Assembly: GCA_964638975.1 (NCBI GenBank)
Contig: CAZXAJ010000005.1
Location: forward strand, 18,213-82,212
Length of the DNA stretch: 64,000 nucleotides
Origin: an uncultured Dehalococcoidales bacterium
Lineage (GTDB): Bacteria > Chloroflexota > Dehalococcoidia > GIF9 > AB-539-J10
Reading direction: 5' to 3'
Below, one piece after another: positions 27,898 through 49,303 of this stretch (its first letter is position 1; each line of letters begins with the position of its first letter). A program made the translations under genes and the position numbers. The notes beneath the pieces are model-generated. The model ran no database searches and was not told the origin of the DNA. It saw nothing but the letters and a program-made list of their open reading frames with translations.

Positions 27898-28818
27898 TTA
27901 TGTCTTTCGCACATTCAAAGGACTCGACTTCCAGCGTTCTTTGTTGGCATCGAGGGCAGCTTTCGTCCCACCCTTTCTCCCGGCAGCAATCAGGTTGAAC
28001 TCGTCCGGCTCACTACGCATCATATGTGCCAAGACATGTGTGTTTGTTCCCATTGTTGCCATTGTCTGCTTGCCCATGATACTTAACGCTATGTTGAAGT
28101 TCTGCTTGCCGATGTATAGAGAATCAGCAGCCTGTAGTGCTACGAGTTCGGCCAGCTTGTTGGTCTCTTCCTCTAGCTTATCCAAGGGCACCACTTTATT
28201 TACCAGCCCACACTCCAGGGCTTCCTGTGCATCGAGACCGCGCCCTGTAAACATTATCTCCTTAGTCATGGTGAGGCCAATCTTGAGGATTAGCATGACC
28301 ATGTCCTCGCCCATGGGGCCGATGTACCGGTAGCCAGGGTGCGTGAACATAGCATTATCAGCGGCGACGATGAAGTCGCAGCCCGAGGCAAGTTGAAAAT
28401 GGCCTCCATAGCAGTAGCCCTGGACCTGGGCGATGGTAATCTTGGGACAATTATGCATTGTCTGGTTGTATCCTCTCCTGCCATAAGCATTTTGCCTGAG
28501 CTCAACAATCCGGAATCCCTGGCTTCGCGGCCGCTCCATCTCTCCGGGCTTGAGTGTATCATCTTGTATAATCATACTCACATCTGCTCCAGCAGAGAAA
28601 TGCTTTCCGGCCCCTTTGAAGATAACAACCTTGACGTCCGGGTCGTCTCCCGCCCTTTGTATAGCCCGCACTATCTGCATATTTTCTTCAGCATCAGCTG
28701 TATTGAGTTTGTCCGGTTTGTTCCAGGTAATCCGGGCTATCTTCTTCTCTTTATCTACCTCGTATAAACAATAGGGGGGGCGTCCTGGAACCACCCGCTT
28801 GTAGTTATAGTCTACCAT
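27898..28818 (-). CDS. Crotonase-superfamily enzyme, paralog (306 aa)
   Basis: VVIFKGAGKHFSAGADV...; same architecture and C-terminal extension (SEPDEFNLIAAGRKGGTKAALDANKERW). GAAAGGAG Shine-Dalgarno. Confidence 0.85.
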   Translation of the reverse strand: MVDYNYKRVVPGRPPYCLYEVDKEKKIARITWNKPDKLNTADAEENMQIVRAIQRAGDDPDVKVVIFKGAGKHFSAGADVSMIIQDDTLKPGEMERPRSQGFRIVELRQNAYGRRGYNQTMHNCPKITIAQVQGYCYGGHFQLASGCDFIVAADNAMFTHPGYRYIGPMGEDMVMLILKIGLTMTKEIMFTGRGLDAQEALECGLVNKVVPLDKLEEETNKLAELVALQAADSLYIGKQNFNIALSIMGKQTMATMGTNTHVLAHMMRSEPDEFNLIAAGRKGGTKAALDANKERWKSSPLNVRKT

Positions 28819-29730: not shown

Positions 29731-29829
29731 ATCTTAGCTAGGGTCGCTATATATTCAAATGCTTAGTGGAGGCATATTATTAATCCTAAAAGCAGGTAGC
29801 GCGAGGTGGGTCGAATAGAAAGGAGAAAA

Positions 29830-30891
29830 ATGTTTGATAAGAGATGGATAATCTTGGCGTTGGCTTTGGTGTTGATACTGAGTTTGCTACTATCTTGCAC
29901 ACCTGTGGCGCCTACGCCCACTCCCACTCCCACGCCAACACCTACATTCCCCGAAATAAAGCTGAAGTTTGCCACCTGGCTAGCCATGGACCACCCCAGT
30001 GCACTGTCGTCATACATTCGCCAGGCTGACCTGATTACTGAGCGCACAGAGGGCGCGGTCACTTTCGAGTGGTATCCGCAAGCGCAACTGTTCAAGCCCA
30101 CGGAGGCGATTGCCAGCGTCGGAGCCGGTGTTGCCGATCTCTCGGTTCTTGTTTTTGCCTATGAGGCAGGCAGGGTACCGCTGGGTTCTGTGGAAGGTCT
30201 CCCCTTCGCTTTCGAGACCCCAAATGAGGTTCTTGAAGTTTATAGACGGGGGTGGGATATGTTGCAAGCGGAAGTTGCTCCCTTCAACGTAAAATTGCTA
30301 AGTTATAACGCGGCACAGGCTCATGTTCTCTGCACCAAGGATAAGCCAGTCAGGACCCTAGATGACGTGAAGGGGCTCAAAATAAGGGGGGCTGGTGGGC
30401 TCGAAGACATGATGCTAGAGGCGATCGGCGCCATCCCTGTCACCATGTCTACTGTCGATGTCTACCTAGCTATACAAACGGGTGTTCTTGACGGAGGTTG
30501 CAGTCTACCGACCAGCCCGGATGCTCATCTCTGGGGCGACCTTGTCCAATATATGATGCTCACTAACCATATGTATGTTGCCGGGGCGACAATGATAAAT
30601 CTGGACACCTGGAATAACCTGTCTCCAGAGGTACAGGAGATAATGCTGGACGCTTCCCGGGATATGGAGGACTATAATGTCGCCTACCTGGATCAGATGT
30701 TTGAAGAGTCAGTAGGAGAGTGGAGTTCACTTCCCGGGAAGGAGGTTATCCAATTCTCCGAGGTGGAGAGAATGAAATGGAAAGAACTTAGTATGCCTAT
30801 ATGGGATGATTGGGTGTCTATTTGCGAAGAGGCAGGCAAGGGCGACGAAGCGCGTCAGTTCCTGACAATAATAGAGGATGTAACTGGATAG
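29830..30891 (+). CDS. dctP: TRAP transporter substrate-binding lipoprotein (DctP family)
   Basis: MFDKRWIILALALVLILSLLLSC (lipobox), a (PT)6 linker, then a DctP-like body (LKFATWLAMDHP...IRGAGG...). ATG at 29830 behind AAAGGAG. Confidence 0.85.
   Translation: MFDKRWIILALALVLILSLLLSCTPVAPTPTPTPTPTPTFPEIKLKFATWLAMDHPSALSSYIRQADLITERTEGAVTFEWYPQAQLFKPTEAIASVGAGVADLSVLVFAYEAGRVPLGSVEGLPFAFETPNEVLEVYRRGWDMLQAEVAPFNVKLLSYNAAQAHVLCTKDKPVRTLDDVKGLKIRGAGGLEDMMLEAIGAIPVTMSTVDVYLAIQTGVLDGGCSLPTSPDAHLWGDLVQYMMLTNHMYVAGATMINLDTWNNLSPEVQEIMLDASRDMEDYNVAYLDQMFEESVGEWSSLPGKEVIQFSEVERMKWKELSMPIWDDWVSICEEAGKGDEARQFLTIIEDVTG
29911..29946 (+). repeat. (CCN ACN)6 coding microrepeat = Pro-Thr linker of the lipoprotein
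   Basis: cct acg ccc act ccc act ccc acg cca aca cct aca. Confidence 0.8.
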
Positions 30892-30990
30892 AAGCTAGAG
30901 GTTTCCGACATGGCACAGCGGTGTTCAAATCCTCACTGGCCTACGTCGGGAGCCAGGTGAGCCTTAGGTCTATCAGGCGGTTTTCCAGGT

Positions 30991-31542
30991 ATGAAGCAAG
31001 CGGCAAAAGTCGCTGCAGTAGTGGTACGTTGTATTGACCGCTTAAGCGAGGCATTAGGCCTGGCAGCGGGCGTAGTTGTCTTGTCGTTCACGTTATTGAT
31101 CGTTTATGAGGTGGTAGCGAGGAAGGTATTTGACGCGCCTCTAGGGTTCGTCTTTGAGCTGTCCACCTATGCTGTGATAGCCATTGTATTATTGCCTCTG
31201 GCTTTCATTCAGGCCCAGAAAAGACACGTCAGTATTGACCTGATAACTTCGCGCCTATCTCCAAGGAAACAGATTATCCTTGACATATTCGCCTCCGTTC
31301 TCTGTTTTGTTTTCTGCGCTCTTCTCGCCTGGAAAAGCGCGGAGGTAGCGTGGAAGTCCTATCAAATGGGCTTAGTATCTGCCACCACCCTAAGAGTGCC
31401 CCTTTTCATACCGCAGGCAATAGTTCCCATAGGAAGTATTCTGGTTTGTCTCCAATTTCTGCTTGCCATTCCCCGTGCTATTCGCTCTCTGGTAAGCCTA
31501 GGCTCGATGGCTGGTGAGCCGGGAGAGGAACTAGAGGCATAG
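30991..31542 (+). CDS. dctQ: TRAP transporter small permease (DctQ family)
   Basis: 183 aa with four hydrophobic segments, lying between dctP and dctM. Confidence 0.8.
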   Translation: MKQAAKVAAVVVRCIDRLSEALGLAAGVVVLSFTLLIVYEVVARKVFDAPLGFVFELSTYAVIAIVLLPLAFIQAQKRHVSIDLITSRLSPRKQIILDIFASVLCFVFCALLAWKSAEVAWKSYQMGLVSATTLRVPLFIPQAIVPIGSILVCLQFLLAIPRAIRSLVSLGSMAGEPGEELEA

Positions 31543-31571
31543 TAGTTTTCCCTGCAGCAGGGAGTGTGTGC

Positions 31572-32870
31572 ATGGAATGGTATGTTGTTACTATCCTGGC
31601 CTTCGCGGCGATGTTTGCCATTGTATTTGCCAAAGTGCCCATAGCCTTCGGCTTGGGTTTGCTGGGGCTGGTTGGGCTTTGGGCTTTTCTCGATGGGAGA
31701 GCGGCTCTACTTTTCTTGGGCAATCATCCATTCAGTGTGCTACAGAATTTTACATTGGTCGCGGTGCCGATGTTCATTTTAATGGCCGAAGTCATTCTGT
31801 TTACTGGCATCAGCGGCGATCTTTTTGACCTTTTTAACAAATGGCTGAATAGGCTTCCTGGTGGTCTAGCTATAAGTGGAATAATGGCTTGTGCTGGCTT
31901 CGGCGCCATGTCTGGCAGCAGCACAGCCACTGCTGCTGGCATCGGCTCCGTTGCTATCCCGGAAATGCAGAGGCGAGGTTATGACAACAGACTGACAGCA
32001 GGTAGTGTAGCCGCTGGTGGTGGGCTGGGCATTCTTATCCCTCCCAGCCTTCCCCTGATCTTTTATGGCGTTATCACCGAGGTTTCTGTGGGCAAGCTAT
32101 TTATGGCTACCCTGATTCCCGGCGTTATCATGGCATTGCTGGAGTCGACTTACGTGACAATACACTGTAAAAGAAATCCTCGCCTGGCTCCACGGATGCC
32201 AGGGGTATCCTGGAAAGACAGAGCCGTTGCATTGAGAGAGGTATGGCCTGTTTTGGTGCTTGTCTTTCTCGTGTTAGGGAGCATCTATCTGGGCTGGGCC
32301 ACTGTTAGCGAGGCAGCGGCTATGGGGGCATTCGGCGCTCTATGTCTCGCCCTGGTTTTTAGAAGACTTACTTGGAGTAATCTGCGAGGGTCACTGTTGG
32401 CCACGGTCAGGGCCACTTCGGCAGTCCTTATTATTTTGGTGGGGGCTTTGTTCTTCGGCTATTTTCTGACTGTGGCTCAGGTTCCGCAGGGGCTCAGCAA
32501 CGTTCTGGTCAATTTGCCCGTAAATCGCTGGGTAATCATGGTAGGTATAAACGTCCTGCTGCTCGTTCTAGGCTGTGTTATGGACATGGCAACACTCATG
32601 CTGGTCGTATTGCCCGTTCTATTTCCGCCAGTTGTAGCCCTAGGATTTGACCCGGTATGGTTTGGGGCAGTATTTATTATCAACGTGCAGATAGGACTTA
32701 TAACTCCACCGATAGGTATGGACTTATTCGTAATCAAAGGTATCTGTGATGTCTCCATGGGTGATATTATCAAAGGTGCCGTTCCCTTTGTCATTGCCAT
32801 GGCTATTACACTAGCCTTGACAATGGCCTTTCCCCAGCTTGCCTTGTTGGTACCAAATTTGATGGGGTGA
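31572..32870 (+). CDS. dctM: TRAP transporter large permease (DctM family)
   Basis: ~432-aa polytopic membrane protein with typical DctM segments (GFGAMSGSSTATAAGIGSVAIPEM, GILIPPSLPLI). Confidence 0.9.
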   Translation: MEWYVVTILAFAAMFAIVFAKVPIAFGLGLLGLVGLWAFLDGRAALLFLGNHPFSVLQNFTLVAVPMFILMAEVILFTGISGDLFDLFNKWLNRLPGGLAISGIMACAGFGAMSGSSTATAAGIGSVAIPEMQRRGYDNRLTAGSVAAGGGLGILIPPSLPLIFYGVITEVSVGKLFMATLIPGVIMALLESTYVTIHCKRNPRLAPRMPGVSWKDRAVALREVWPVLVLVFLVLGSIYLGWATVSEAAAMGAFGALCLALVFRRLTWSNLRGSLLATVRATSAVLIILVGALFFGYFLTVAQVPQGLSNVLVNLPVNRWVIMVGINVLLLVLGCVMDMATLMLVVLPVLFPPVVALGFDPVWFGAVFIINVQIGLITPPIGMDLFVIKGICDVSMGDIIKGAVPFVIAMAITLALTMAFPQLALLVPNLMG

Positions 32871-32930: not shown

Positions 32931-34145
32931 ATGGCTGAGAGTGCTTTGGCAGGGATAAAGGTTCTGGAGTTTTGCCAGATGGTAGCTGGTCCCTACTGCA
33001 CCAAGCTGATGGCTGACCTAGGTGCCGAGGTGGTGAAGATTGAAAAGCCGGGCTGGGGTGATGAAGCTAGGAGCAGGCCACCTTTCTTTCATGATGTTCC
33101 TGATCCTGAAACGAGCGGCCTTTTCTTGTATCTCAACACCAATAAGCTGGGGGTCACTCTTAATGTGGAGAGTGAAACCGGGAGGAAGATATTCAAGGAG
33201 CTGGTGAAGGAAATAGACATCCTGGTGGAGGATAATCCTCCTGGTGTGATGAAGAAGCAAGGCCTGGACTACGAGGTTCTCAAGGAACTTAATAGCGGCT
33301 TGATTATGACCTCCATTACCCCCTTCGGGCAGACAGGACCCTATCGGAATTACAAGGCTTATCCACTCAATGCATTTCAGAGTGGGGGAGAGGGCTATCT
33401 CACGCCTAGCGGTGTGGAGAACATTGGTCGCCCCCCACTAAAAGCAGGCAGCTTCCTCGAGGAATATGACAGCGGCTTGAGTGCAGCCATAGCTACAATG
33501 GGTGCACTTTACTGGAAGAAAAGCTCTGGGTTGGGACAGTTCATAGACATCTCAAAACAGGAATCGGCAATGTCCCTTAATAGAATGGATGTTATAGTCA
33601 GGTATGCTAACGAAAGAAAGCTTCTCACCAGGGCCCAGCAAGGGGTCCCATATGGGGGAATCTTGCCCTGTAAAGACAATGATTACACCGTATTTGTAAC
33701 ATGGCAGGAGCGGCAGTGGGAGAGAGTGGTATCCATGATGGACAACCCTGCTTGGGCGGAAGATGAGAGGTTTAAGGACCACGGTGGTCGGTTTAAACAC
33801 GGCGAGCTGCTCAATGCCTTTCTAGTAGAATGGTTGGTAAATTATACTAAAGAGGAGCTTTATCATATGGGGCAGGCCAATGGCGTTCCTTTTGGTATGG
33901 TTAATACCGCTAAGGATTTACTTGATTCAGAGCACCTGAAGGAAAGGGGATTCTTCGTAGAGATTGACCATCCCAGGATGGGGAAGGTCAAGTACCCCTC
34001 AGCGCCCCACAAATTTTCTGAGACACCCTGGAGAGTGAATCGCCCTGCACCCTTGCTTGGCGAGCACAACGGTGAAATTTACTGCGGACGCCTGGGTTAT
34101 AGCAAGGAAGAGCTGGTTAAGCTCAGAGAGGCGGGGGTGATTTAG
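32931..34145 (+). CDS. Family III CoA-transferase (CaiB/BaiF/Frc type), subunit 1
   Basis: 404 aa. GIKVLEFCQMVAGPYCTKLMADLGAEVVKIE...; interlocked-dimer family signature. Confidence 0.9.
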   Translation: MAESALAGIKVLEFCQMVAGPYCTKLMADLGAEVVKIEKPGWGDEARSRPPFFHDVPDPETSGLFLYLNTNKLGVTLNVESETGRKIFKELVKEIDILVEDNPPGVMKKQGLDYEVLKELNSGLIMTSITPFGQTGPYRNYKAYPLNAFQSGGEGYLTPSGVENIGRPPLKAGSFLEEYDSGLSAAIATMGALYWKKSSGLGQFIDISKQESAMSLNRMDVIVRYANERKLLTRAQQGVPYGGILPCKDNDYTVFVTWQERQWERVVSMMDNPAWAEDERFKDHGGRFKHGELLNAFLVEWLVNYTKEELYHMGQANGVPFGMVNTAKDLLDSEHLKERGFFVEIDHPRMGKVKYPSAPHKFSETPWRVNRPAPLLGEHNGEIYCGRLGYSKEELVKLREAGVI

Positions 34146-34161
34146 GAGGTATCTTAGTGCC

Positions 34162-35361
34162 ATGGATATCCTGGCTGGAATAAGAGTACTGGATTTTACA
34201 GCGCATGTGGCGGGACCACAGGCGACGATATTATTGGCATATATGGGGGCAGAAGTTATCAAGGTTGAGGGTAGAGCGTATTTAGATGTACTAAGAACTA
34301 CTGCCACCGCAATAGGCACAGGGAAAACGGCTGTCGGCATGTTTAACAGCATGAATGTCGGCAAGTTAGGCATAACTCTCAATCTCACCCACCCCAATGG
34401 AGCAGAACTGGCGAAGAGGCTGGTCAAGATAAGTGATGTAGTGGTGGATAACTTCAGGGCGGGGGTGATGGACAAGCTTGGCTTGGGTTATTCAGTTCTC
34501 AAGGAAATCAAACCCGATATCATAATGGTCTCTGCTTCAAGCCATGGGGCAACCGGCCCTGAGAGCAGATATAGCGGTTTTGCAGTGACCATGGGTCCCC
34601 TCAGTGGGCTATCTCATATAACGGGTTATCCTGGCGGTCCTCCGGCGATTTTGAGGAATAGCGTTGATTCCAGAATGGGCAATGCTGCAGCCTTTGCTAT
34701 ACTCGTCGCCCTTAATTATCGGCAGGAGACTGGAAAGGGCCAGTTTGTGGACCTCTCCGGCAGGGAGGCGCTTACTTGCAGTATGGGTGAGATCATCATG
34801 GACTACACCATGAATGGCAGGGTCAGCTCTCGCAATGGCAATCGAGATGCTATTATGGCTCCCCACAATTGCTACCGCTGCAGGGGTGAAGACAAATGGG
34901 TTAGCATAGCTATCTCTGGTGATGAGGAGTGGGGTTCTTTTTGCGAGACCATAGGGAATCCAAAGTGGACCAAAGAAGAAAGATTCTCCGCTCAACTCAG
35001 CCGGTGGCAGAATCAGGATGAGCTGGATAGGCTAATTGAGGAGTGGACTATTACCCATACCCACTACGAGGTGATGGAAATGCTTCAGAGAGCAGGGGTG
35101 GCAGCGATACCCTCCTTCAGCAACGAGGACCTTTTCAATGATGCACATTGCCAGGAGCGTGAATATCTTGTTCCCGTTCAACATCAGGAGGCGGGACAAC
35201 TGTTTGCGCTTGCCCCGCCCTGGAAATTCTCAGTTACCCCTGCAAGGGTTACTAGACCAGCACCCGTGCTCGGTGAACACAATGATTATGTTTTTGGAGA
35301 GCTCCTGGGAATGTCCCGGGATGAAATTGCCAGACTGGCTGATGAGGGCGTCTTTGACTAA
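34162..35361 (+). CDS. Family III CoA-transferase, subunit 2 / paralog
   Basis: 399 aa. GIRVLDFTAHVAGPQATILLAYMGAEVIKVE... It starts 16 nt after the previous gene, with a TAGGAGG Shine-Dalgarno. Confidence 0.9.
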   Translation: MDILAGIRVLDFTAHVAGPQATILLAYMGAEVIKVEGRAYLDVLRTTATAIGTGKTAVGMFNSMNVGKLGITLNLTHPNGAELAKRLVKISDVVVDNFRAGVMDKLGLGYSVLKEIKPDIIMVSASSHGATGPESRYSGFAVTMGPLSGLSHITGYPGGPPAILRNSVDSRMGNAAAFAILVALNYRQETGKGQFVDLSGREALTCSMGEIIMDYTMNGRVSSRNGNRDAIMAPHNCYRCRGEDKWVSIAISGDEEWGSFCETIGNPKWTKEERFSAQLSRWQNQDELDRLIEEWTITHTHYEVMEMLQRAGVAAIPSFSNEDLFNDAHCQEREYLVPVQHQEAGQLFALAPPWKFSVTPARVTRPAPVLGEHNDYVFGELLGMSRDEIARLADEGVFD

Positions 35362-35460: not shown

Positions 35461-37170
35461 TCAGTCAAAATTGAAAAGCCCCAGTTCTATCTCCTTTTCT
35501 ATGGTGTTTTCTCCTCTAGGCCCGTACTGGGGTCCCCGAGCTTCCATGAGCACCTTCATTATTTCCCCGGCAGTGATATAGGTTTTTACGGCCTCAATCA
35601 TAGGTGGCATCATATTAACCTTTTCTTTGAATGCCTCATATAGCATCTTCTTCGCCTGTTCCACCTTTGCGTTGTCCCTTTCCCTTCGGACTTTGTCCAA
35701 GCGCTCCACCTGCTTCCGGTACATGGCCTGGTAATCGAAATCAAGTACCTCTGGGACGAAAGTTGATAACATATCCTTTTCGTCCATCACATATTCATTT
35801 ACACCGACAACTATTCTCTGCTTACTATCAATCTCCTTTTGACGTTTGTAGGCAGCTTCCCTTTTCTGTGGCAAAAACCAGGAACAAGCCTTAATTTTGC
35901 ACGCACCTCCCAATTCCTCAAGTTTGTCTATGATTTTCTGGGCCTCCTCCTCCATTTTGTTTGTTAGCCACTCCACATAGTACGAGCCCCCTAGAGGGTC
36001 AGCGACGTTTACAATCCCCGACTCGTGCTCTACAATCTGCTGCGTTCTCAAGGAGAGCACCTTGCCAACATCAGATGGCGTTGATAGGGCTTCATCATAG
36101 GTATCCACAGCCAATGACTGAACCCCTGCCAGAGATGCTGCCAAGGTATGAATAGTACCCCTAACAAGGTTATTCAAAGGCTGTTGTGCCGTGAAGGTGG
36201 GGCCAAGGCTTTGGACGTGGACTCTCATCCTCAATGAGCGCGGGTCTTTAGCGCCAAATTCCTCTTTCATCATTCTGGCCCACATCCTTCTCAGTGCTCT
36301 GAACTTGGCTACCTCCTCAAACAAGTCATTGCCAACTCTGAAATAGGAGTGTATTCTCGGAGCGAAGCGGTCAATCTCTATACCTCGCTTCATTACCTCC
36401 CTAATCCCATCCTTGCCCACAGCTATGCCCCAAGCTAGCTCCTGGACTGCTGTTAAGCCTCCGTCCCTGATGTTCGCAGCATCAATATAAAAGGCATTCC
36501 AGTTAGGCATTTCATCGGCACAGAATTCAACCATATCAATAAAGGGATTGCCTTTGTTCTCTGGATAGAGAATCAGCCTTACTTGGGCGGAAGAACTGCC
36601 CTGGAGTGTTTTTCTGTCATAGCCTCTCTTTTCGGCTGCCACGACAAACATAGCGAGGTCAATAGGAAAGAGCCCGGCCATAACGTGGAACTTTTCCAGG
36701 TCTATTCCATCGTACAAGTCTTCGAAATCAGCCAGCGTGTCCATCTTGGTGTTGTGTCTGAAGGCATGTCCTAGATATAGCGGGTCGTCGGTATCCCAGG
36801 ATGTCTTCTTCCCTGCGAAAGTGCCGGCATGGAGGGCAAACGCCGTTTGGCCCTGAGATATGAGATACTTGGCCAGTTTGTTACACTCGTCGGCTGTGCC
36901 GCGCGCGGCCACTTGCCGCCTATTCCATGCCCTTGTTCGGTAGCCACTGGGGAATACGCCGCGAGTATAGGGATACTGCCCGGGAAAGCCGATTTCACTC
37001 AGATAGTCTATCCCCTCAACATCGGCTGGGGTATAGACCCGGTCAACGGGTATCCAAGAGTCAGTTGCGTATTCACTCTTCTGCTCGGGAACCTTTTCCA
37101 GACTGCGAGCTGCCCGCTCGTCATACTCTTTCCTTGCTTCCTTGATCTTTTCCAGCTCTTTCTCGTTCAT
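35461..37170 (-). CDS. B12-dependent acyl-CoA mutase, large (substrate-binding TIM-barrel) subunit, copy 1; non-canonical
   Basis: FPGQYPYTRGVFPSGYRTRAWNRRQ..., FEEVAKFRALRRMWARMM, QSLGPTFTAQQPLNNLVR, DPLGGSYYVEWLT are methylmalonyl-CoA-mutase-family blocks. ATG at 37170 behind AGGAGG. The track ORF runs to 37200. Confidence 0.9.
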   Translation of the reverse strand: MNEKELEKIKEARKEYDERAARSLEKVPEQKSEYATDSWIPVDRVYTPADVEGIDYLSEIGFPGQYPYTRGVFPSGYRTRAWNRRQVAARGTADECNKLAKYLISQGQTAFALHAGTFAGKKTSWDTDDPLYLGHAFRHNTKMDTLADFEDLYDGIDLEKFHVMAGLFPIDLAMFVVAAEKRGYDRKTLQGSSSAQVRLILYPENKGNPFIDMVEFCADEMPNWNAFYIDAANIRDGGLTAVQELAWGIAVGKDGIREVMKRGIEIDRFAPRIHSYFRVGNDLFEEVAKFRALRRMWARMMKEEFGAKDPRSLRMRVHVQSLGPTFTAQQPLNNLVRGTIHTLAASLAGVQSLAVDTYDEALSTPSDVGKVLSLRTQQIVEHESGIVNVADPLGGSYYVEWLTNKMEEEAQKIIDKLEELGGACKIKACSWFLPQKREAAYKRQKEIDSKQRIVVGVNEYVMDEKDMLSTFVPEVLDFDYQAMYRKQVERLDKVRRERDNAKVEQAKKMLYEAFKEKVNMMPPMIEAVKTYITAGEIMKVLMEARGPQYGPRGENTIEKEIELGLFNFD

Positions 37171-37222
37171 TAGCTTGCCTCCTGTTTCCTTTCCGGTCAC
37201 TTCTTACGAATTACTAGTTTGA

Positions 37223-37612
37223 TTACTCTCGGTGGTGTCCCTTCATAAGACTAGCGATGGAGTCTATCGAGGTACCAGGACCGAATACCTCAATAACCCC
37301 CATCTCTTTCAATTTAGTAACTTCTCGCGGACGAATTATGCCCCCCGCAATAATAGGTATGTCAGCACCTTTCTCCTTCAGCTTTTGTAACAAGGTCTCA
37401 ACCAGGTAAATAGGGTCTCCAGCCATATTACGGAAGCCAATAAAATCCACGTCCTCCTGAATGGCAGTCTCCGCAGCTTCTTCAGGCAATTGCGCGCCTC
37501 CGAGGATCACCTCAATCCCACGCTCTCTAAGTCCTGTAGCAAGAATGTTGTATCCTGCCTCGTGACCATCCATGGGGTGTCGGGTAAGCAGCATTCGTAT
37601 TTTCTTCTCCAT
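37223..37612 (-). CDS. Acyl-CoA mutase small subunit (B12-binding domain), copy 1
   Basis: 129 aa. DxHxxG motif as MDGHEAGYN, then SxL- and GG-type blocks (DFIGFRNMAG, IIAGGIIRP). Confidence 0.9.
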   Translation of the reverse strand: MEKKIRMLLTRHPMDGHEAGYNILATGLRERGIEVILGGAQLPEEAAETAIQEDVDFIGFRNMAGDPIYLVETLLQKLKEKGADIPIIAGGIIRPREVTKLKEMGVIEVFGPGTSIDSIASLMKGHHRE

Positions 37613-37891
37613 ATTGAAATCTCCCTTTCGCTAAAATCTGCTGACTAGAATGTGGTATTTTATACTATTGCGAGCTCTCTGGCAAACTCTAATCGCAGAG
37701 CTGATGGGCGACGAACGAGGTCTCTACTCTTGGATTGGGTTGTCCCCGAAACTAGAGACAAGGTCATGTCTTTTCTTATGTGAAAATAGACGGAGTTAAT
37801 AACACATCAAATAGCGTATGGTAAAAAGCCTGGGCAAAAGCAGACATTGCCTATGGGGGCTGACAAGAGATGTCGAAAGCCTGTCGATATA

Positions 37892-39604
37892 TCAGTGGTA
37901 AGTGAAAAGTGCTAACTCTAACTCGTTCTCTAGTTTATCTCCTCCCCTGGGTCCATATTGCTTCCCCCGGGCTTCCATGAGCACCTTGATTACTTCTCCG
38001 CCACTTATGTATGTTTTTGCAGCCTCGATAAGCGGTGGCATAATGTTCTCCCTGGCTTTAAACACCTCATATAGCCTTTTCTTAGCCGTCTCTACTGCTG
38101 AATTGTCTCTTTCCTTTCGGATCTTGTTAAGGCGGTCTATCTGCTTCTGGAGAAGGACAGGATCGTACTTTCTCAAATGGGGGGCAAAGGTTGCTAGCGT
38201 GTCCTCCTCGTCCATCACGTATTCATTAACTCCGACGAGTATTCTTTCTTTGTTATCGATCTCTCTTTGATATTTTGCTGCGGAGGCCTTCATTTGTTCG
38301 TAAAACCAAGAGCAAGCCTTGACTCTACAGGCTCCTCCCAAATCCTCAAGCTTGTCTATTATTTTCTGGGCCTCTTCCTCCAGTTTATTGGTTAACCACT
38401 CCACGTAGTACGAGCCCCCTAGAGGGTCCACGACATCTGTCACGCCGGTCTCGTGCTCTATAATCTGTGCTGTCCTCAGGGATAGTATCTGGGCAAACTC
38501 TGATGGAGTTGCCAGAGGTTCATCAAAAGTCTGTATGGACAAAGATTGAGCTCCTCCCAGAATTGCTGCCAGACCATGGAAAGCACTCCTAACAAGGTTA
38601 TTCAAAGGCTGTTGCGCCGCCATGGCGGGGCCATAAGTCTGTACACCAGCTCTCAACCTCCATGACCGCGGGTCCTTGGCACCAAACTTCTCTTTCATCA
38701 CCCTGGCCCACATTCGCCTCATTGCCCTGAACTTGGCTATCTCTTCAAAGAAATCGCTGCCGGCATTGACGTAGAACTGTATCCTTGGGCCAAAACGGTC
38801 GATGCCTATGCCTCTCTCCATTACTGTCCTGACTCCATCCATTCCCACCGCTATACCCCAGGCTATCTCCTGGACCGCAGTCAAGCCTCCTTCCCTGATA
38901 TTCCTGGCATCAACATAGAAGGCATTCCAGTTGGGCATTTCATTGGCACAGAATTCAACCATATCGATATAGGGGTTGCCCCTATTTTCGGGGTACAGGA
39001 GCATTCTGACTTTACTGGACACGCTACCTGAGAGCTTTCTCCGATCATAGCCCTTTTTTTCCGCTGCGGCAACGAAGAAGGCAAAGTTAACCCAATTATC
39101 TACGGGTAAAAGGAAGTTGATCTTATCTATGTCAATCCCTTCGAGTACTTCTTCCCAATCAGCTACTGTGTCCCCTTTCGCGTTCGTCTTCATCCCGTAT
39201 CCTATCATTAACTCCTCGTCTGAATCCCAGGGTACCTTAGTCCCTCCACCAGAGATTGCGAAAGCTGCGGTCAGTGCCGTTTGGCCTTGCGCTATAAGGT
39301 TTTTCCATAGCTGATTGCATTCTCCTGGTGTGCCATAACCAACCACTTGCCTCTTGCTCCATGTCCTTGTCCGATGGCCGCTAGGGAATAACCCTCGGGT
39401 ATAGGGATATTGGCCGGGGAAGCCGATGTCCCTCAAATAGTCCGTCCCCTTGATGTCGGCCGGAGTGTAGAGCCGGTCAACAGGTAACCAAGAATCGGTT
39501 TCGTATTTAGTCTTTTGCTCCGGAGTCTTCTGTACGGTACGAGCTACCAACTCATCATACTCTTTTCTTGCTTCTTTGATCTTTTCTATTTCTTTCTTAT
39601 CCAT
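37892..39604 (-). CDS. B12-dependent acyl-CoA mutase large subunit, copy 2 (tandem paralog of copy 1)
   Basis: 570 aa, collinear with copy 1 and with long identical peptide runs (DPLGGSYYVEWLTNK, EEEAQKIIDKLE, MPNWNAFY, AQQPLNNLVR). Confidence 0.9.
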   Translation of the reverse strand: MDKKEIEKIKEARKEYDELVARTVQKTPEQKTKYETDSWLPVDRLYTPADIKGTDYLRDIGFPGQYPYTRGLFPSGHRTRTWSKRQVVGYGTPGECNQLWKNLIAQGQTALTAAFAISGGGTKVPWDSDEELMIGYGMKTNAKGDTVADWEEVLEGIDIDKINFLLPVDNWVNFAFFVAAAEKKGYDRRKLSGSVSSKVRMLLYPENRGNPYIDMVEFCANEMPNWNAFYVDARNIREGGLTAVQEIAWGIAVGMDGVRTVMERGIGIDRFGPRIQFYVNAGSDFFEEIAKFRAMRRMWARVMKEKFGAKDPRSWRLRAGVQTYGPAMAAQQPLNNLVRSAFHGLAAILGGAQSLSIQTFDEPLATPSEFAQILSLRTAQIIEHETGVTDVVDPLGGSYYVEWLTNKLEEEAQKIIDKLEDLGGACRVKACSWFYEQMKASAAKYQREIDNKERILVGVNEYVMDEEDTLATFAPHLRKYDPVLLQKQIDRLNKIRKERDNSAVETAKKRLYEVFKARENIMPPLIEAAKTYISGGEVIKVLMEARGKQYGPRGGDKLENELELALFTYH

Positions 39605-39624
39605 TAGCTTTCCTCCTTACTTCC

Positions 39625-40017
39625 CTAATTACCTCGATGATAGTTCTTCATGAAGTTGGCGATGGAGTCCAGTGAACTACCAGGGCCAAATATCTCGATA
39701 ACTCCCATACTTTTCAATCGGGGGATATCCTTCGAGGTAACTATGCCCCCCACAATGACAGGTATGTCAGCACCCTTTTCCTTTAACTTCTGTAGCAAGA
39801 TTTCGACCAGAATAGTAGGTTCTCCAGACGTAATGCGGTAGCCGATAAAATCCACGTCCTCTTGAATAGCGGTTTCTGCAATTTCCCCAGCTAATTGCGT
39901 TCCCCCCAAGATCACCTCGATCCCACGCTCTCTAAGTCCTGTGGCCACTACATTGTAACCTCTCTCGTGTCCATCGTAAGGGTGCCTAGTCAGCAGCATT
40001 CTTATTTTTTTCTCCAT
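39625..40017 (-). CDS. Acyl-CoA mutase small subunit (B12-binding domain), copy 2
   Basis: 130 aa. MEKKIRMLLTRHPYDGHERGYN (DxHxxG). Paralog of 37223-37612. Confidence 0.9.
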   Translation of the reverse strand: MEKKIRMLLTRHPYDGHERGYNVVATGLRERGIEVILGGTQLAGEIAETAIQEDVDFIGYRITSGEPTILVEILLQKLKEKGADIPVIVGGIVTSKDIPRLKSMGVIEIFGPGSSLDSIANFMKNYHRGN

Positions 40018-44342: not shown

Positions 44343-45134
44343 ATGGATTTAGGTCTAGCGGGCAAAACGGTCATTGTTACGGGAGGCGGTTCAAACATTG
44401 GGCGTGCTATTTCCCTGACTTTTGCCAGGGAAGGGGCAAATTTGGCAGTCGCGGAGCTGAAAGCGGAGTTCGGTGAGAAAACAGTCCAAGAGGCCAATGC
44501 TCTCAAGGCGGGGGGGCGCAGTTTGGTGATTGAGGCAGACGTGACCAAGTTTGATGCGGTGGAGGCTATGGTAAATAAGGCCATAGGAGAGTTTGGTAAG
44601 GTAGATATACTGGTTAACAACGTAGGCTGGGACGAAGTCATGCTGTTTATTGATACTACTCCTGATTTGTGGGATAAGATAATCAGCATAAACTACAAGG
44701 GTGTGCTCAATTGTACCAAGGCGGTACTCCCACACATGATAGAGCAAAAGAGTGGGGCGATTGTAAGCATAGGCTCGGATGCCGGGCGCATAGGAGAATT
44801 CAGAGAATCAGTTTATGGGGGCTGCAAAGGCGCCGTAATTGCCTTTACCAAGGCAGTAGCCAGGGAGACAGGACGCTATGGGATAAGGTTAAATGTCGTC
44901 TGTCCAGGGATGACCGTCCCTGGGGATGAGGAGATAGGGAGTGGAAGCATGTGGCAAGTGACGAAGGCTCAATACCCTCCTGAACTTGTGGAAAAAATAG
45001 GAAAGAGCTATCCATTGCGCCGGGTTGGGAAGGCCCAAGAGGTAGCCAATGCCGTGGCATTCCTGGCCTCGGATGCTGCCAGCTTCATAACCGGACAAAC
45101 CCTCAGTGCCAGTGGCGGCTACACCATGATGTAA
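44343..45134 (+). CDS. Short-chain dehydrogenase/reductase (FabG-like)
   Basis: 263 aa. TGGGSNIGRA, NNVG, S...YGGCKGA (catalytic YxxxK), ...ASDAASFITGQTLSASGG. GGAGAA Shine-Dalgarno. Confidence 0.9.
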   Translation: MDLGLAGKTVIVTGGGSNIGRAISLTFAREGANLAVAELKAEFGEKTVQEANALKAGGRSLVIEADVTKFDAVEAMVNKAIGEFGKVDILVNNVGWDEVMLFIDTTPDLWDKIISINYKGVLNCTKAVLPHMIEQKSGAIVSIGSDAGRIGEFRESVYGGCKGAVIAFTKAVARETGRYGIRLNVVCPGMTVPGDEEIGSGSMWQVTKAQYPPELVEKIGKSYPLRRVGKAQEVANAVAFLASDAASFITGQTLSASGGYTMM

Positions 45135-45203
45135 CTTGGCGGTGGATGACTTCTCTAAGAGGCAAGGAGTTTTTTTGAGGCACCATAATTTAAGGAGGTG
45201 AAA

Positions 45204-45680
45204 ATGGCTATTCCTGAAAAAGTTGCAGAGCTGATTGGCAGGCCGCTAGGAGAGCCGCTAGTTTGGGAGGTTGAAGGGGGGGCGATAAGAAGATTTGCTG
45301 ATGCCGTAGGTGACTCTAATCTCTTGTACCATGATGTAGAATACGCCAGAAACAGCAAGTACGGCGAGATTATCGCTCCTTTAGGTTTTCATGGTTGGCC
45401 AATGAAGGGTGGCCTTATGGAGATGATGGGTTCGCTAATGGGCCCTATGATGAATGCTGGCTACCCTGTATTACTCGATGCTGGCATAGAGTTCGAATCA
45501 TTTGTCCCTATCAGAGCTGGTGATGTTCTAAGTTCCTATTCAACGGTGACAAATATTGCAGAGAAAACTACAAAGAGCGGCAAGGGGATGCTCATACTCA
45601 CGACAGAGATGAACTTCATAAATCAAAATGGAGACAAGGCATTGATAGAGCGTTCCTCTCTTATCTGCCGAGAGTTGTAG
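45204..45680 (+). CDS. MaoC_N-type hot-dog protein (non-catalytic partner of a heteromeric (R)-hydratase, HadA/ChsH1-like)
   Basis: ~158 aa. ...GAIRRFADAVGDSNLLYHDVEYARNSKYGEIIAPLGF... ATG at 45204 behind GGAGGTG. Confidence 0.75.
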   Translation: MAIPEKVAELIGRPLGEPLVWEVEGGAIRRFADAVGDSNLLYHDVEYARNSKYGEIIAPLGFHGWPMKGGLMEMMGSLMGPMMNAGYPVLLDAGIEFESFVPIRAGDVLSSYSTVTNIAEKTTKSGKGMLILTTEMNFINQNGDKALIERSSLICREL

Positions 45681-45694
45681 GATAGGAGGTAGAG

Positions 45695-46165
45695 ATGGCA
45701 AAACAAATTTATTGGGAGGATGTGGATGTTGGTACTGAAGTGACTCCTATTTCCAAGATAGCTACTACACAGATGTTGGCCATGTGGGCGGGAGCCTCAG
45801 GTGACTTTAACCCCTTACACTACCAGGAGTCTTTCGCTCAGTCGCGGGGAATGCCATCTGTTCTGGTTCATGGCCGCCTTAAGGGGCAATGGCTAGTACA
45901 CTTAGTAGAGAACTGGATCGGGGAAGAAGGAAAGATTAAGAAGCTCTCTTGTCAGTACAGGGCTGAAGACTATCCTAGAAAAATGAATTCGGAGCTAACT
46001 TATGAGGAGGGTGAGACCTGGTGGTGTAAGGGCATAGTTACGCAGAAATACGCCCAGGATGGTGAACACATGGTGGACTGTGACATCTGGGTGGAGAATG
46101 GGAAAGGGGAGAAGACGACACCTGGCAAGGCTACTGTAGTCTTGCCTTTGAAGGGAGCAAAATAA
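45695..46165 (+). CDS. MaoC-domain (R)-specific enoyl-CoA hydratase subunit
   Basis: 156 aa with the hydratase motif GDFNPLHYQESFAQSRGMPSVLVHG. Confidence 0.85.
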   Translation: MAKQIYWEDVDVGTEVTPISKIATTQMLAMWAGASGDFNPLHYQESFAQSRGMPSVLVHGRLKGQWLVHLVENWIGEEGKIKKLSCQYRAEDYPRKMNSELTYEEGETWWCKGIVTQKYAQDGEHMVDCDIWVENGKGEKTTPGKATVVLPLKGAK

Positions 46166-46182
46166 GAGGAAAGGAGCTGAAA

Positions 46183-47121
46183 ATGGCAAAGTTATTAGAT
46201 GGCAAAGTAGCAATCGTTACTGGGGCAGGCAGAGGTATCGGAAGGGAGCACGCCTTGGCAATGGCGAAAGAGGGGGCTAAGGTAGTGGTAAATGATTATG
46301 GGGGAGGTTATGATGGGGCAGGTAAGGCTACCGGCCCAGCCCAGGAAGTGGTTGAGGAGATAGCGGCTTTCGGCGGAGAGGCAGTCCCTAATTTCGCTGA
46401 TGTTTCCAGCTTTGCTGCAACAAAGGAGCTTATTGATCTCGCTATAGATAAGTTCGGCAAACTGAATATTCTGGTAAATAATGCTGGTATCGTCAGAGAC
46501 AGGATGATATTCAACATGGGTGAGGATGATTGGGATAGAGTAATCGCTATTCACCTTAAAGGCCACTTCAATTGCACACAGCATGCTTGTGCTTACTGGA
46601 GGGAACAGCATAAGGCGGGAAATATCCTGAATGGGTCAATTATAAATACCAGTTCAGATGCCGGGCTTCTGGGAAATATCGGACAAGTGAACTATGGTTC
46701 GGCTAAAGCAGGAATTGCCCTTATGACAGTTGTTGTGGCTATAGAAATGGCAAAGTACGGGGTGCGTTGTAATTGTATAGCCCCATCAGCAAGGACGAGA
46801 ATGACCACAGAGGCTACCCCTTCCTTGGGAGCTATAATGGGAGGTGAAGTAGCTCCAGGTGAATTCGACATGTTCGCACCAGAAAACATGTCTCCGCTAA
46901 TAGTCTATCTGGCTTCCGATGATGCCAAGGACATTACTGGCGAGGTAGTAAGGGTTATGGGAAATAGGATTTGGCTTGTCCGTGGCTGGCATACCGCAGG
47001 CACTGTTGCTAAGCAAGAGAAGGCGAAATGGGAACCTATGGAGCTTGGCCAAGCGCTCAAGAACCTGGTAAAAGAGGCTCCGCCTAAGGAAGACATGATG
47101 TCAATTTCTAAAGACTTATGA
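46183..47121 (+). CDS. SDR of the MFE-2 / (3R)-hydroxyacyl-CoA dehydrogenase type
   Basis: 312 aa. VAIVTGAGRGIGREHALAMAKEGAKVVVNDYGGGYDGAGK...NNAGI...YGSAKAG resembles the dehydrogenase domain of multifunctional enzyme 2. Confidence 0.8.
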   Translation: MAKLLDGKVAIVTGAGRGIGREHALAMAKEGAKVVVNDYGGGYDGAGKATGPAQEVVEEIAAFGGEAVPNFADVSSFAATKELIDLAIDKFGKLNILVNNAGIVRDRMIFNMGEDDWDRVIAIHLKGHFNCTQHACAYWREQHKAGNILNGSIINTSSDAGLLGNIGQVNYGSAKAGIALMTVVVAIEMAKYGVRCNCIAPSARTRMTTEATPSLGAIMGGEVAPGEFDMFAPENMSPLIVYLASDDAKDITGEVVRVMGNRIWLVRGWHTAGTVAKQEKAKWEPMELGQALKNLVKEAPPKEDMMSISKDL

Positions 47122-47282: not shown

Positions 47283-48887
47283 ATGGAGGATAAAGAGCAA
47301 TTTGCCTCGGGATCAGGAATTCCTATAAAGGGAATATATGGTCCTGATGATGTGAAAGATATTAACTATGATAGAGATATCGGGCTTGCGGGGGAGCCTC
47401 CGTTCACTCGGGGAGTTTACTCCACCATGTATCGAGGCAGGTTGTGGACTATAAGACGGTATTCTGGAGTTAATACCCCGGAGGAGACTAACAAGCTTTA
47501 TCGGCGCGAATACGAATTGGGCCAGACAGGTTTTTCTGTGGCTACTGATGTTCCTACAGGATATGGGGTGGACTGTGACGATTCCGCAGCTTTCGCTGAT
47601 GTTGGCGATGCTGGAGTTCCCATAAGTTCTCTTAAGGATATGGAAACAACGTTTGAAGGTTTGCCCATAGATAAGATAGCGACAGCGCTCGAGGTCTCCA
47701 CTGAAAGTGGCTGTCCCCTCACAGCTATGTATATGGCTATAGCTGAAAATAGGGGCTTCGATATGGAGCAGCTCAGAGGCACTACTTTGAACGATTTCAC
47801 TGCCTCATCATCATGTGCTTATCATAAAGACCAAATGCCACCTCAAGCATTGTTAAGATTGAGTGTGGATCTTATCGAATGGTGCTGTGAGTGTGCTCCC
47901 AAGTGGCACCCGATGTGTCTCGATTCCTATCCTTATCGAGAGCAAGGAATCGACGCAGTGCAGGAGCTAGGTTTGATTCTAGCGACGGCCATTCAGTATA
48001 TCGAGGAAGAGAAACGACGGGGCAGGGTGCCTCTAGATAAGTTTGTACGGCGCTTCTCCTTTAACATGGGCGTCCATAATGACTTCTTTGAGGAAATTGC
48101 CAAACTGCGGGCGGGACGGCGTATGTGGTATAGGATTGCCAGAGAGAGATATGGCATCGAGAATCCAAGTTGCTGGCAGTTTCGTCTTCATGTTCAATCT
48201 TCGGGTTGCACTCATACTACTCAGGAACCTCTAAATAACCTTGTTCGCATTGCCTACCAGATGCTTGCCGCCGCTCTGGGCGGAGCTCAATCTATGCATG
48301 CCAATGGATATGATGAAGGGGTTTGTTTACCCACGGAACAATCGATGCTGCTCTCTATCAGGACGGGGCAGGTACTGCAGTATGAGACCAATGTAATAAA
48401 CACAGTAGACCCCCTAGGCGGGTCCTGGTATGTTGAAAGGCTTACCAGTGAAATCGAACGGCGCACCTGGGATTATATCCAGAAGATTGAAGAAATGGGG
48501 GGGATGATTCAAGCCCTTACCACGGGATGGGTTCACAGGGAATATAGAGATGCCATGCTCGAGCATGAGCGCAGGGTAACCTCTGGTGAGACCGTAGTGG
48601 TTGGGGTGAACAAGTTTCGTCTTGGAAAGGAGCCTTATGAGGTGCCTATATTCAGGCCGAATCCTAAATCACCTGAGATTCAAATTGAGAAGCTTAAGAA
48701 GTTCAAGAAGGAGCGGGACAATGACAAGGTTGCTCAGGCGCTGCGAAATCTAGAGGAAGTTAGCAGCAGTGAAGAGAATGTTATGCCTGCGGTTATGGAA
48801 GCAGTCAAGGCTTATGCTACTATAGGGGAGATAAGCAATGTCTGGCGTACAGTCTACGGGGTATGGTCTCCTCCAATGATACTTTAA
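47283..48887 (+). CDS. B12-dependent acyl-CoA mutase large subunit, copy 3 (distinct lineage from copies 1/2)
   Basis: 534 aa. PPFTRGVYSTMYRGRLWTIRRYSG, FFEEIAKLRAGRRMWYRI, TTQEPLNNLVR, DPLGGSWYVERLT. Confidence 0.9.
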   Translation: MEDKEQFASGSGIPIKGIYGPDDVKDINYDRDIGLAGEPPFTRGVYSTMYRGRLWTIRRYSGVNTPEETNKLYRREYELGQTGFSVATDVPTGYGVDCDDSAAFADVGDAGVPISSLKDMETTFEGLPIDKIATALEVSTESGCPLTAMYMAIAENRGFDMEQLRGTTLNDFTASSSCAYHKDQMPPQALLRLSVDLIEWCCECAPKWHPMCLDSYPYREQGIDAVQELGLILATAIQYIEEEKRRGRVPLDKFVRRFSFNMGVHNDFFEEIAKLRAGRRMWYRIARERYGIENPSCWQFRLHVQSSGCTHTTQEPLNNLVRIAYQMLAAALGGAQSMHANGYDEGVCLPTEQSMLLSIRTGQVLQYETNVINTVDPLGGSWYVERLTSEIERRTWDYIQKIEEMGGMIQALTTGWVHREYRDAMLEHERRVTSGETVVVGVNKFRLGKEPYEVPIFRPNPKSPEIQIEKLKKFKKERDNDKVAQALRNLEEVSSSEENVMPAVMEAVKAYATIGEISNVWRTVYGVWSPPMIL

Positions 48888-48901
48888 GAGGTGAAAGCGT
48901 T

Positions 48902-49303
48902 ATGGGTGAGAAGAAAGTCAAGGTTCTAATGGCTAAGCCGGGGTTAGAGGGTCATTGGCGTGGGATGGTTGTAGTAAGTAGTGCTCTGCGTGATGCCGGG
49001 TTCGAGGTTATCTATGGGGGAAATATGATGCCCACGGAAATCGCGACCACGGTTGTTCAGGAGGATGTGGATGTTGTGGGGTTGAGTATTTTGTCCGCAA
49101 ATTATATGCTGCTGGTTTCCCAGACCATCAAGGAGCTAAAAAATCATGGAAAAGGTGATGTATTGGTGTTGTTGGGTGGAATTATCTATGAGGAGGATTT
49201 CCCTGCTCTTAAGGAAATGGGCGTGGCTGAAATTTTTATTCCCGGAACACCTCTACCAGATATAGTAGAATCCGTCCGCAAGCTAACTTCTGCCATGGTA
49301 TGA
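48902..49303 (+). CDS. Acyl-CoA mutase small subunit (B12-binding), copy 3, with E-x-H-x-x-G
   Basis: 133 aa from the ATG at 48902 (GAGGTGA Shine-Dalgarno). KVLMAKPGLEGHWRGMVVV...VVGLSILS...VLLGGII. Confidence 0.85.
   Translation: MGEKKVKVLMAKPGLEGHWRGMVVVSSALRDAGFEVIYGGNMMPTEIATTVVQEDVDVVGLSILSANYMLLVSQTIKELKNHGKGDVLVLLGGIIYEEDFPALKEMGVAEIFIPGTPLPDIVESVRKLTSAMV

Follow-up and report, generated by a model that had tools for sequence, protein, structure and literature searches.

A 64,000-nt stretch of DNA from an uncultured Dehalococcoidales bacterium (the window, in whose numbering all window coordinates are given) carries on its minus strand two acyl-CoA mutase units, each composed of a gene for a small cobalamin-binding subunit and a gene for a large substrate-binding subunit. 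Open reading frame (ORF) calling recovered the four genes in the order S2, L2, S1, L1 (Table 1), as a preliminary description of this DNA had listed them, and the paralogy proposed there is confirmed by pairwise identities far above chance (64% between L1 and L2, 73% between S1 and S2). The L1 ORF is open as far as a GTG at 37200, and the most likely start is the ATG at 37170 rather than this GTG because the gene called on an independent contig and the closest homologs are likewise 569 aa in length. L1 and L2 each score 469 bits with PF01642 (cut-off 22) and reach 453 and 438 bits, respectively, with TIGR00641 (cut-off 304), while S1 and S2 score 61 and 59 bits with PF02310 (cut-off 32) and 103 and 102 bits with TIGR00640 (cut-off 57). 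Both subunit types thus exceed the curated family cut-offs, and the identification of the locus as a split B12-dependent acyl-CoA mutase stands. TIGR00641 and TIGR00640, both subfamily-domain models, are the only NCBIfam models reached by the four proteins.

Table 1. Mutase genes and other features of the window
Feature	Position	Strand	Evidence or remark
S2, small cobalamin-binding subunit of unit 2 (130 aa)	39625-40017	-	PF02310, E 5e-16
L2, large substrate-binding subunit of unit 2 (570 aa)	37892-39604	-	PF01642, E 2e-140
Inter-unit spacer (279 bp)	37613-37891	-	terminator-like hairpin 37845-37828 after L2; promoter-like site 37685-37657 before S1
S1, small cobalamin-binding subunit of unit 1 (129 aa)	37223-37612	-	PF02310, E 9e-17
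L1, large substrate-binding subunit of unit 1 (569 aa from ATG)	35461-37170	-	PF01642, E 2e-140
Two family III CoA-transferase genes (404 and 399 aa), resembling a BbsEF-type heteromeric pair	32931-35361	+	PF02515, E 3e-94 and 2e-107
Tripartite ATP-independent periplasmic (TRAP) transporter DctP-DctQ-DctM	29806-32870	+	PF03480 (DctP, 29806-30891), NF037995 TRAP_S1; DctQ/DctM called on an identical contig
Acetyl-CoA hydrolase/transferase-family CoA-transferase (441 aa)	25528-26853	+	Pfam, NCBIfam
Enoyl-CoA hydratase	26914-27843	-	Pfam, NCBIfam
Enoyl-CoA hydratase	27898-28818	-	Pfam, NCBIfam
Third split mutase, L3 (534 aa) and S3 (146 aa)	47283-49303	+	upstream, 44343-47121: operon of short-chain dehydrogenase/reductase (SDR), MaoC, MaoC, SDR
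Peripla_BP_6 ORF	49727-50602	+	profile positions 84-342 of 343
Complete bacterial 16S rRNA gene	56476-57990	+	Rfam, 1523 bits
Oxygen-stress cluster	229-7779	-	

The large subunits were aligned with HMMER and MAFFT together with L3, the large subunit of a third split mutase in the window, with 119 homologs and with three references: MutB (residues 37-559) of P. shermanii methylmalonyl-CoA mutase (MCM), human MUT, and HcmA of the 2-hydroxyisobutyryl-CoA mutase (HCM) of Aquincola tertiaricarbonis. These references were rebuilt from HMMER output, with all segment lengths in agreement, and two Xanthobacter references obtained from a plasmid tblastn search were added later. The MutB literature number equals the SEQRES index plus 1, and Ile90 and Asp117 of HcmA match the 4r3u sequence at a constant offset of 11. 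Given that the H244A mutant 1e1c reads GYAMQEAG where 1req reads GYHMQEAG, and that the two sequences differ exactly there, the assignment of columns 243 and 244 is secure.

With this anchoring, the Tyr243-His244 dyad of MutB is found to be replaced by Ala232-Asn233 in L1 and by Arg234-Asn235 in L2. The GLSVAFD of strand 1 becomes AFALHAG in L1 and ALTAAFA in L2 (GLSVAFDLPT reading AFALHAGTFA and ALTAAFAISG), and 7-9 residues are gone in both proteins from the segment after Gln197 (GTIQNDILKE through Arg207). The preliminary description had given the same dyad and strand replacements and had called the GTIQNDILKE block unrecognisable, all of which the alignment bears out. Its placing of Tyr89 in an '..ATMY..' motif was mistaken, in that Tyr89 is the Tyr of 'WTIRQ-Y-AGF' and corresponds to Val87 in both L1 and L2; the difference between PSGY in L1 and PSGH in L2, on which that placing was built, is real but lies at MutB position 79, not 89. 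Further replacements affect Ala116 of MutB (Asp117 in HcmA), which is His114 in L1 and Ala114 in L2, as well as Thr195 and Gln197 (Ser and Ser in both) and Met78 (Gly in both). By contrast, columns R82, R87, R283, Q330, Q361 and S362 of MutB, which we take to be CoA or cofactor contacts, are retained in L1 and L2. Pocket residues are conserved inside each ortholog group, and about ten presumed pocket positions differ between L1 and L2. The many small residues lining the pocket (Gly78, Val87, Ser192/194, Ala232) suggest room for a bulky substituent.

The best match to L1 and L2 in both sequence and structure is HcmAB (4r3u; E 6e-111 for L1 and 1e-110 for L2, 37-40% identity), which likewise consists of separate large (~560 aa) and small (~130 aa) subunits and also has an aliphatic residue in place of MCM Tyr89 (Ile90 in HcmA, Val87 in L1 and L2). 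However, HcmA has Asp117 where L1 has His114 and L2 has Ala114, has a Gln208 whose equivalent in L1 and L2 is uncertain, keeps the Tyr-His (YH) dyad that reads Ala-Asn in L1 and Arg-Asn in L2, and possesses a full GTVQADILKEYMAQ block that is 7-9 residues shorter in L1 and L2, while HcmB keeps the SxL motif at whose Ser position S1 and S2 carry Arg. The HCM/RCM signature (Ile90, Asp117 or, in RCM, Val, Gln208 and YH) is therefore not that of L1 and L2. MCM (P. shermanii MutB, 1req; human MMUT, 2xij) resembles the window proteins in family, fold and retained CoA-contact columns, and probably also in His-on cobalamin binding. It differs by Tyr89 (Val in L1 and L2), Met78 (Gly), the YH dyad (Ala-Asn or Arg-Asn), the SVAFD strand (replaced) and the Gln197-Arg207 segment (partly deleted), and its subunits are fused where L1/S1 and L2/S2 are separate; the combination of Tyr89 and Arg207 that serves carboxylate binding in MCM is thus lacking, with Val at 89 and the Arg207 region deleted or shifted.

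For isobutyryl-CoA mutase (ICM), we assume a signature in which Phe replaces Tyr89, Gln replaces Arg207 and the YH dyad is retained. L1 and L2 have Val at 89 and Asn at 244, and homologs that do show the ICM signature, such as P0033 (Phe, 'FIAQK', YH), lie outside the clade described below. Xaut_5043/5044 of Xanthobacter autotrophicus Py2, which we take to be a probable pivalyl-CoA mutase (PCM; Kitanishi et al. 2015), is likewise a split enzyme that diverges in the strand-1 motif and lacks Tyr243, and its cluster includes MeaB and CoA ligases. Xaut_5043 keeps His244 (Gln-His), has Leu at 89 and shows no deletion in the 197-207 block, a pocket pattern unlike that of L1 and L2; it is 31% identical to each of them and groups with their clade in just 14 of 100 bootstraps. 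Finally, ethylmalonyl-CoA mutase (ECM), presumably a fused protein of about 650-690 aa in which Tyr89, Arg207 and His244 are retained (Erb et al. 2008), would not fit the split subunits, Val89 and Asn244 of L1 and L2.

That the greatest overall similarity is to HcmA, and that the split architecture is shared with HCM, ICM and PCM, raises the possibility that L1 and L2 are ordinary mutases of known specificity (MCM, ICM, HCM/RCM, ECM or PCM) whose pocket has drifted while the substrate stayed the same. However, all specificity positions compared (89, 116, 197, 243 and 244) differ, in addition to the 7-9 residue deletion, and the equivalog scores fall far short, with 363 and 357 bits for the MCM model NF006944 (cut-off 876) and 149 bits for the IcmF model NF045497 (cut-off 1500). 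Moreover, the clade of L1 and L2 excludes every reference at 92% bootstrap, and the same sequence space also holds a separate, canonical-looking YH set whose residue at 89 is Tyr or Phe. We consider drift around a known substrate very improbable, and by the features compared L1 and L2 are judged not to be MCM, ICM, HCM or PCM. The new specificities proposed in the preliminary description are upheld to the extent that the pockets mismatch these four enzymes and that the clade excludes them, and two specificities are plausible because of the roughly ten pocket differences between L1 and L2; the sequence does not, however, allow a substrate to be assigned.

The replacement of His244 is not confined to the window. 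Asn occupies this column (Cys once) in 70 of the 125 aligned sequences, which comprise the 119 homologs, L1-L3 and the three references, and 68 of the 70 are database homologs. At columns 243 and 244 these 70 sequences, referred to here as xN, read RN in 60 cases, AN in 5, GN in 4 and RC in 1, and most of them have Val at 89 and Gly at 78 and lack 9-16 residues after 197. Bootstrapped neighbour-joining trees recovered the xN group as monophyletic in 92 of 100 replicates, to the exclusion of MutB, MUT, HcmA, the HCM-like Xaut_5021, the probable PCM Xaut_5043, the ICM-signature sequences and L3. L1 and L2 therefore lie, with 92% support, outside all references tested, and their pocket is indeed unlike that of the characterised members compared, as had been suspected; it is, however, neither private nor peculiar to this locus but the hallmark of a large uncharacterised clade.

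Within xN, the L1 type (AN or GN together with an 'ALHAG' motif) has 100% support, and so does L2 together with P0013-15, whereas L1 and L2 alone as a group have 0%. These values indicate that the split between L1 and L2 is old, which on the evidence of the trees predates other Dehalococcoidia lineages, and that the tandem did not arise by recent duplication. The 'tandem duplicate' of the preliminary description is thus right in that paralogous pairs lie side by side, but not in implying a recent event, and each type is found as a solitary gene elsewhere (the L1 type in P0008, an L2-like gene in P0015).

An exhaustive search of 1.84 billion cluster representatives returned 1407 proteins at E <=1e-30. 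Columns 243 and 244 were classed in 164 sequences, made up of about 150 of the best representatives (at least 430 aa in length) and 14 reference or window sequences. YH accounts for 39 of the 164, followed by YN (19), RN (9), YD (9), SH (7), YP (4) and many more types, and Asn is the second commonest residue at column 244 (33/164). Judged by these columns, non-canonical pockets are common across uncharacterised members of the family. A search with an xN-only profile gave generically named proteins from metagenome-assembled genomes (MAGs) of Desulfobacterales, Syntrophaceae, Peptococcaceae, Chloroflexota, Spirochaetota and Nitrospinae, with no cultured or specifically named member among its best 120 matches. 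No xN-type gene was present among 422 plasmid-borne homologs, where all tblastn matches were below 40% identity. A scan of GTDB genomes with L1 yielded a single close relative, Dehalococcoidia W31_73, the remainder being canonical MCMs of 35-42% identity, and full-text literature searches aimed at characterised members, residue tables or sequence-network surveys of these enzymes returned nothing that describes the xN clade.

We consider it probable (about 0.72) that S2-L2 and S1-L1 are two functional adenosylcobalamin (AdoCbl)-dependent acyl-CoA mutases of a distinct, uncharacterised clade that act in organic-acid catabolism. The data establish family membership, the fold, the clade, the altered pocket, purifying selection and the genomic surroundings, and from these catalysis, the part played in a pathway and the class of substrate are inferred. 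The AlphaFold2 model of L1 (pLDDT 91.5, pTM 0.92) superposes in Foldseek on HcmA 4r3u with a TM of 0.90-0.93 and a root-mean-square deviation of 2.0 A, and on MMUT and MutB with a TM of 0.85. In this model a coil takes the place of the 'NDILKE(F/Y)M' of MCM and HCM, and the Gln197-bearing helix is deleted. In comparison with the sister MAG W31_73 (~89% nucleotide identity), dN/dS is 0.053 for L1, 0.084 for S1, 0.072 for L2 and 0.078 for S2, similar to the flanking pyrG, rho and tal, indicating strong purifying selection on all four mutase genes.

Loss of the catalytic His244 and Tyr89 could also mean that the large subunits are non-catalytic paralogs like MutA of P. shermanii MCM, or decaying genes, with a structural, a regulatory or no role. 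In line with this, the MutA beta-subunit model TIGR00642 scores L1 and L2 slightly higher than L3 (177 versus 145 bits), and both S2 and L2 of W31_73 carry an uncompensated 1-nt indel. However, 177 bits is far below the cut-off of 617, each large subunit adjoins its own cobalamin-binding subunit, in which DxHxxG is intact, and the low dN/dS (0.05-0.08) includes S2 and L2. In addition, the exact L2 protein recurs intact on 9 other contigs, AdoCbl maturation genes adjoin relatives (MeaB at locus L006, a PduO-type adenosyltransferase at L045), and Asn at 244 in 69 of the 70 clade members sampled points to selection on that residue. Given this evidence, a non-catalytic role is hardly credible. A heterodimer of L1 and L2, in the manner of MutA/MutB, was also rejected because L1 and L2 each have a small subunit to themselves and because either type can be encoded singly in other genomes.

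The indels in W31_73 lie in its orthologs of S2 and L2 (L009 7157-9282, DAOUMB010000060.1), with one in each gene and none in S1 or L1. The dS of S2 and L2 (0.70-0.82) is two to three times that of S1, L1 and the flanking housekeeping genes (0.22-0.37), with dN/dS still near 0.07. Assembly error, recent decay or recombinational replacement of unit 2 are possible causes. Pseudogenisation as the general explanation of unit 2 was rejected because of the dN/dS of 0.07 and the recurrence of the intact protein, and an assembly error or very recent decay in W31_73 itself is possible.

The small subunits carry the DxHxxG motif as described before (D15-G-H17-E-A-G20 in S1, DGHERG in S2) together with the GG motif, and the His and Gly of DxHxxG as well as the GG motif are invariant across the small subunits aligned. 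In the PDB, S1 matches the small subunits of B12-dependent mutases, 2yxb and HcmB (4r3u_C). At the SxL site, however, Arg replaces Ser in both S1 ('GFRNM', R61) and S2 ('GYRIT'), and the partners of xN-type large subunits (S1, S2 and those of loci L002, L004, L006, L007, L043, L044 and L045) read G-[Y/F/C]-R-x with a nearly invariant Arg, whereas S3, HcmB and MUT retain SxL. The three most distant xN-type partners are also without the Asp of DxHxxG. The Arg at the SxL site may reflect a different fit for the cobamide lower ligand or nucleotide loop. The clade is marked by Asn for the general-acid His244, Val for Tyr89, Gly for Met78, deletion in the Gln197-Arg207 segment and, in the small subunit, Arg for the Ser of SxL.

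If HCM and MCM are taken as a guide, the small subunit would bind the cofactor via His17, while the TIM barrel of the large subunit would be threaded by the acyl-CoA. Homolysis of the Co-C bond would generate a 5'-deoxyadenosyl radical that abstracts a substrate hydrogen, after which the thioester carbon would migrate to the neighbouring carbon. Since the general-acid His is thought to aid this migration and is absent clade-wide, L1 and L2 might instead be AdoCbl radical enzymes that act on CoA esters by a chemistry other than the 1,2-thioester shift, such as the transfer of another group or an elimination. Deletion of the Gln197-bearing helix, the Arg at the SxL site and the missing DxHxxG Asp of distant members would agree with such a change. 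By contrast, L1 and L2 have the fold, subunit organisation and CoA-contact columns of acyl-CoA mutases, an Asn could still hydrogen-bond the thioester carbonyl, and the rank of Asn as second commonest residue at column 244 suggests that the family tolerates it there without a switch to another type of reaction. As positive evidence for another chemistry is also lacking, we regard it as decidedly unlikely.

We further entertain, as a speculative possibility of rather low probability, that xN forms a mechanistically distinct subfamily, in which a mutase without the general-acid His and with altered cobamide binding (the nucleotide-loop Arg and, among distant members, the missing DxHxxG Asp) would carry out a rearrangement not yet assigned to any enzyme, with L1 and L2 acting on two substrate isomers. 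Candidates would be the postulated step from aryl- or alkyl-succinyl-CoA to a substituted malonyl-CoA in anaerobic hydrocarbon and aromatic-acid degradation, or a wholly new acyl-CoA isomerisation.

The genes around the mutases bear on the catabolic role proposed for two functional AdoCbl-dependent enzymes. A pair of CoA-transferase genes converges on L1, and the TRAP transporter genes lie directly upstream of the pair on the same strand, forming an operon of DctP-DctQ-DctM and the two CoA-transferases. For the second CoA-transferase, the top match is benzylsuccinate CoA-transferase subunit B (9fn0_B; E 2e-71), well ahead of the runner-up at 9e-48, and the first matches subunit A (9fn0_A) at E 7e-49, inside its top group. 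The acetyl-CoA hydrolase/transferase-family protein and the two enoyl-CoA hydratases are possible downstream steps.

Relatives show comparable arrangements. The P0008 locus (67% identical, GN type) has, in one direction, a binding protein, two CoA-transferases, S, L and a 441-aa transferase of the acetyl-CoA hydrolase/transferase family, followed by thiolase/DUF35 and HGD-D genes, and a 457-aa protein of that family follows the mutase at the P0068 locus. At L043, a TRAP operon stands directly upstream of an xN-type L-S pair (TRAP-L-S), with ligases and thiolase/DUF35. In another relative, L-S is accompanied by an ABC transporter and a CoA ligase, and the L006 relative has S-L with MeaB, acyl-CoA dehydrogenases and electron-transfer flavoprotein. 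As read from these gene orders, the shared logic would be acid uptake, CoA activation, B12-dependent rearrangement and beta-oxidation. In the window, the TRAP system would import the acid, the BbsEF-like CoA-transferase pair would activate it, and the mutases would reshape its carbon skeleton for entry into beta-oxidation. The P0068 locus, which belongs to a distant xN relative, has two tandem large-subunit genes, behind which come one small-subunit gene, a CoA-transferase gene and the genes for E1 alpha/beta (L007 5923-10106); its tandem large subunits may form a MutA/MutB-like heteromer within the xN clade.

B12-dependent rearrangement of CoA-activated substituted dicarboxylates has been described in anaerobes, including the IaaL/IaaGH indoleacetate pathway of Aromatoleum aromaticum and a proposed alkylsuccinyl-CoA rearrangement in alkane degradation (PMC8360864). 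In the former, IaaL is the family III CoA-transferase and IaaGH the phenylsuccinyl-CoA/benzylmalonyl-CoA mutase, and the general scheme has a binding protein serve acid uptake and a substituted succinate become CoA-activated ahead of the rearrangement. Compared by pathway logic alone, these systems resemble the window in combining acid uptake, a family III CoA-transferase, a two-subunit B12 mutase and beta-oxidation, the window counterparts of the IaaL/IaaGH pathway being the BbsEF-like pair, the TRAP system and the mutases. No indoleacetate-specific genes were seen in the window, and the Val at 89 and the uncertain Arg207 of L1 and L2 are not obviously suited to a free carboxylate. The BbsEF-like pair near the mutases hints at substituted-succinyl-type substrates, and as a leading guess we propose a CoA ester of the succinyl or malonyl type with a bulky substituent, comparable to those of IaaL/IaaGH or of anaerobic alkane degradation; we would give a substituted-succinyl-type substrate roughly one chance in four. 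Given that His114 and Ala232 of L1 stand opposite Ala114 and Arg234 of L2, the two enzymes most likely act on two different but related substrates or isomers.

Several observations weigh against two functional mutases in such a pathway. His244 is important in MCM catalysis, and its loss together with that of Tyr89 makes low activity or a different chemistry possible. Val at 89 resembles the enzymes for non-carboxylate substrates (Phe in ICM, Ile in HCM), which argues against a succinyl-type substrate, and the conserved Arg of 'VR[LM]' (R198 in L1, R200 in L2) borders the deletion and could or could not equal Arg207. Members of the xN clade are known from sequence alone. Their neighbourhoods also differ across the clade, with P0041 adjoining a MetH-like gene, so that a single substrate class for the whole clade is unlikely. 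Within the window, the CoA-transferase and TRAP genes are on the strand opposite to the mutases, and their link to them therefore rests on proximity and on the co-directional arrangement of P0008. Finally, neither MeaB nor an adenosyltransferase was found among the window ORFs scanned.

Acyl-CoA mutases are valued for the degradation of branched and quaternary carbon skeletons and for the building of synthetic pathways. To our knowledge, about half a dozen specificities have been characterised, all of which keep His244. By contrast, the clade to which L1 and L2 belong is widespread in uncultured anaerobes (Dehalococcoidia, Desulfobacterales, Syntrophaceae and Peptococcaceae), and has His244 and Tyr89 replaced and the cobalamin tail pocket altered; despite these changes its genes are under strong purifying selection and lie within catabolic operons. 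If the clade catalyses a new B12-dependent isomerisation, it could supply a missing step in the anaerobic breakdown of substituted dicarboxylates. Alternatively, it may offer a lesson in how a radical rearrangement proceeds without the canonical acid catalyst, and the two diverged paralogs adjacent in the window represent a natural experiment in specificity.

The spacer between the two units contains a terminator-like hairpin and a promoter-like site, and a consensus scan placed a second promoter-like site upstream of S2. These consensus matches are weakly compatible with two separate transcription units. Rfam matched no cobalamin riboswitch or other RNA in the mutase locus, its sole match in the window being the 16S rRNA gene elsewhere.

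The third mutase, L3 with S3, has a non-canonical pocket of another type, in which Tyr89 is kept, His244 is replaced by Pro ('SYPYRE'), Gln197 is replaced by Leu and the Arg207 region differs. This 'YP' type comprises the 4 sequences so classed among the 164, and the SxL of S3 is normal. Just past S3, the Peripla_BP_6 ORF looks N-terminally truncated or mis-started.

With its housekeeping genes, a lone 16S rRNA gene and an oxidative-stress set, the window is a chromosomal piece of an anaerobe. Since Rfam matched neither 23S nor 5S rRNA anywhere in the window, the rRNA genes appear to be unlinked. The oxygen-stress cluster encodes an ODP/flavodiiron-like metallo-beta-lactamase protein, a flavin reductase-rubredoxin fusion, SufBD with an ABC ATPase, rubrerythrin, a thioredoxin-reductase-like flavoprotein, Hsp20 and DJ-1/PfpI, a set that fits a strict anaerobe.

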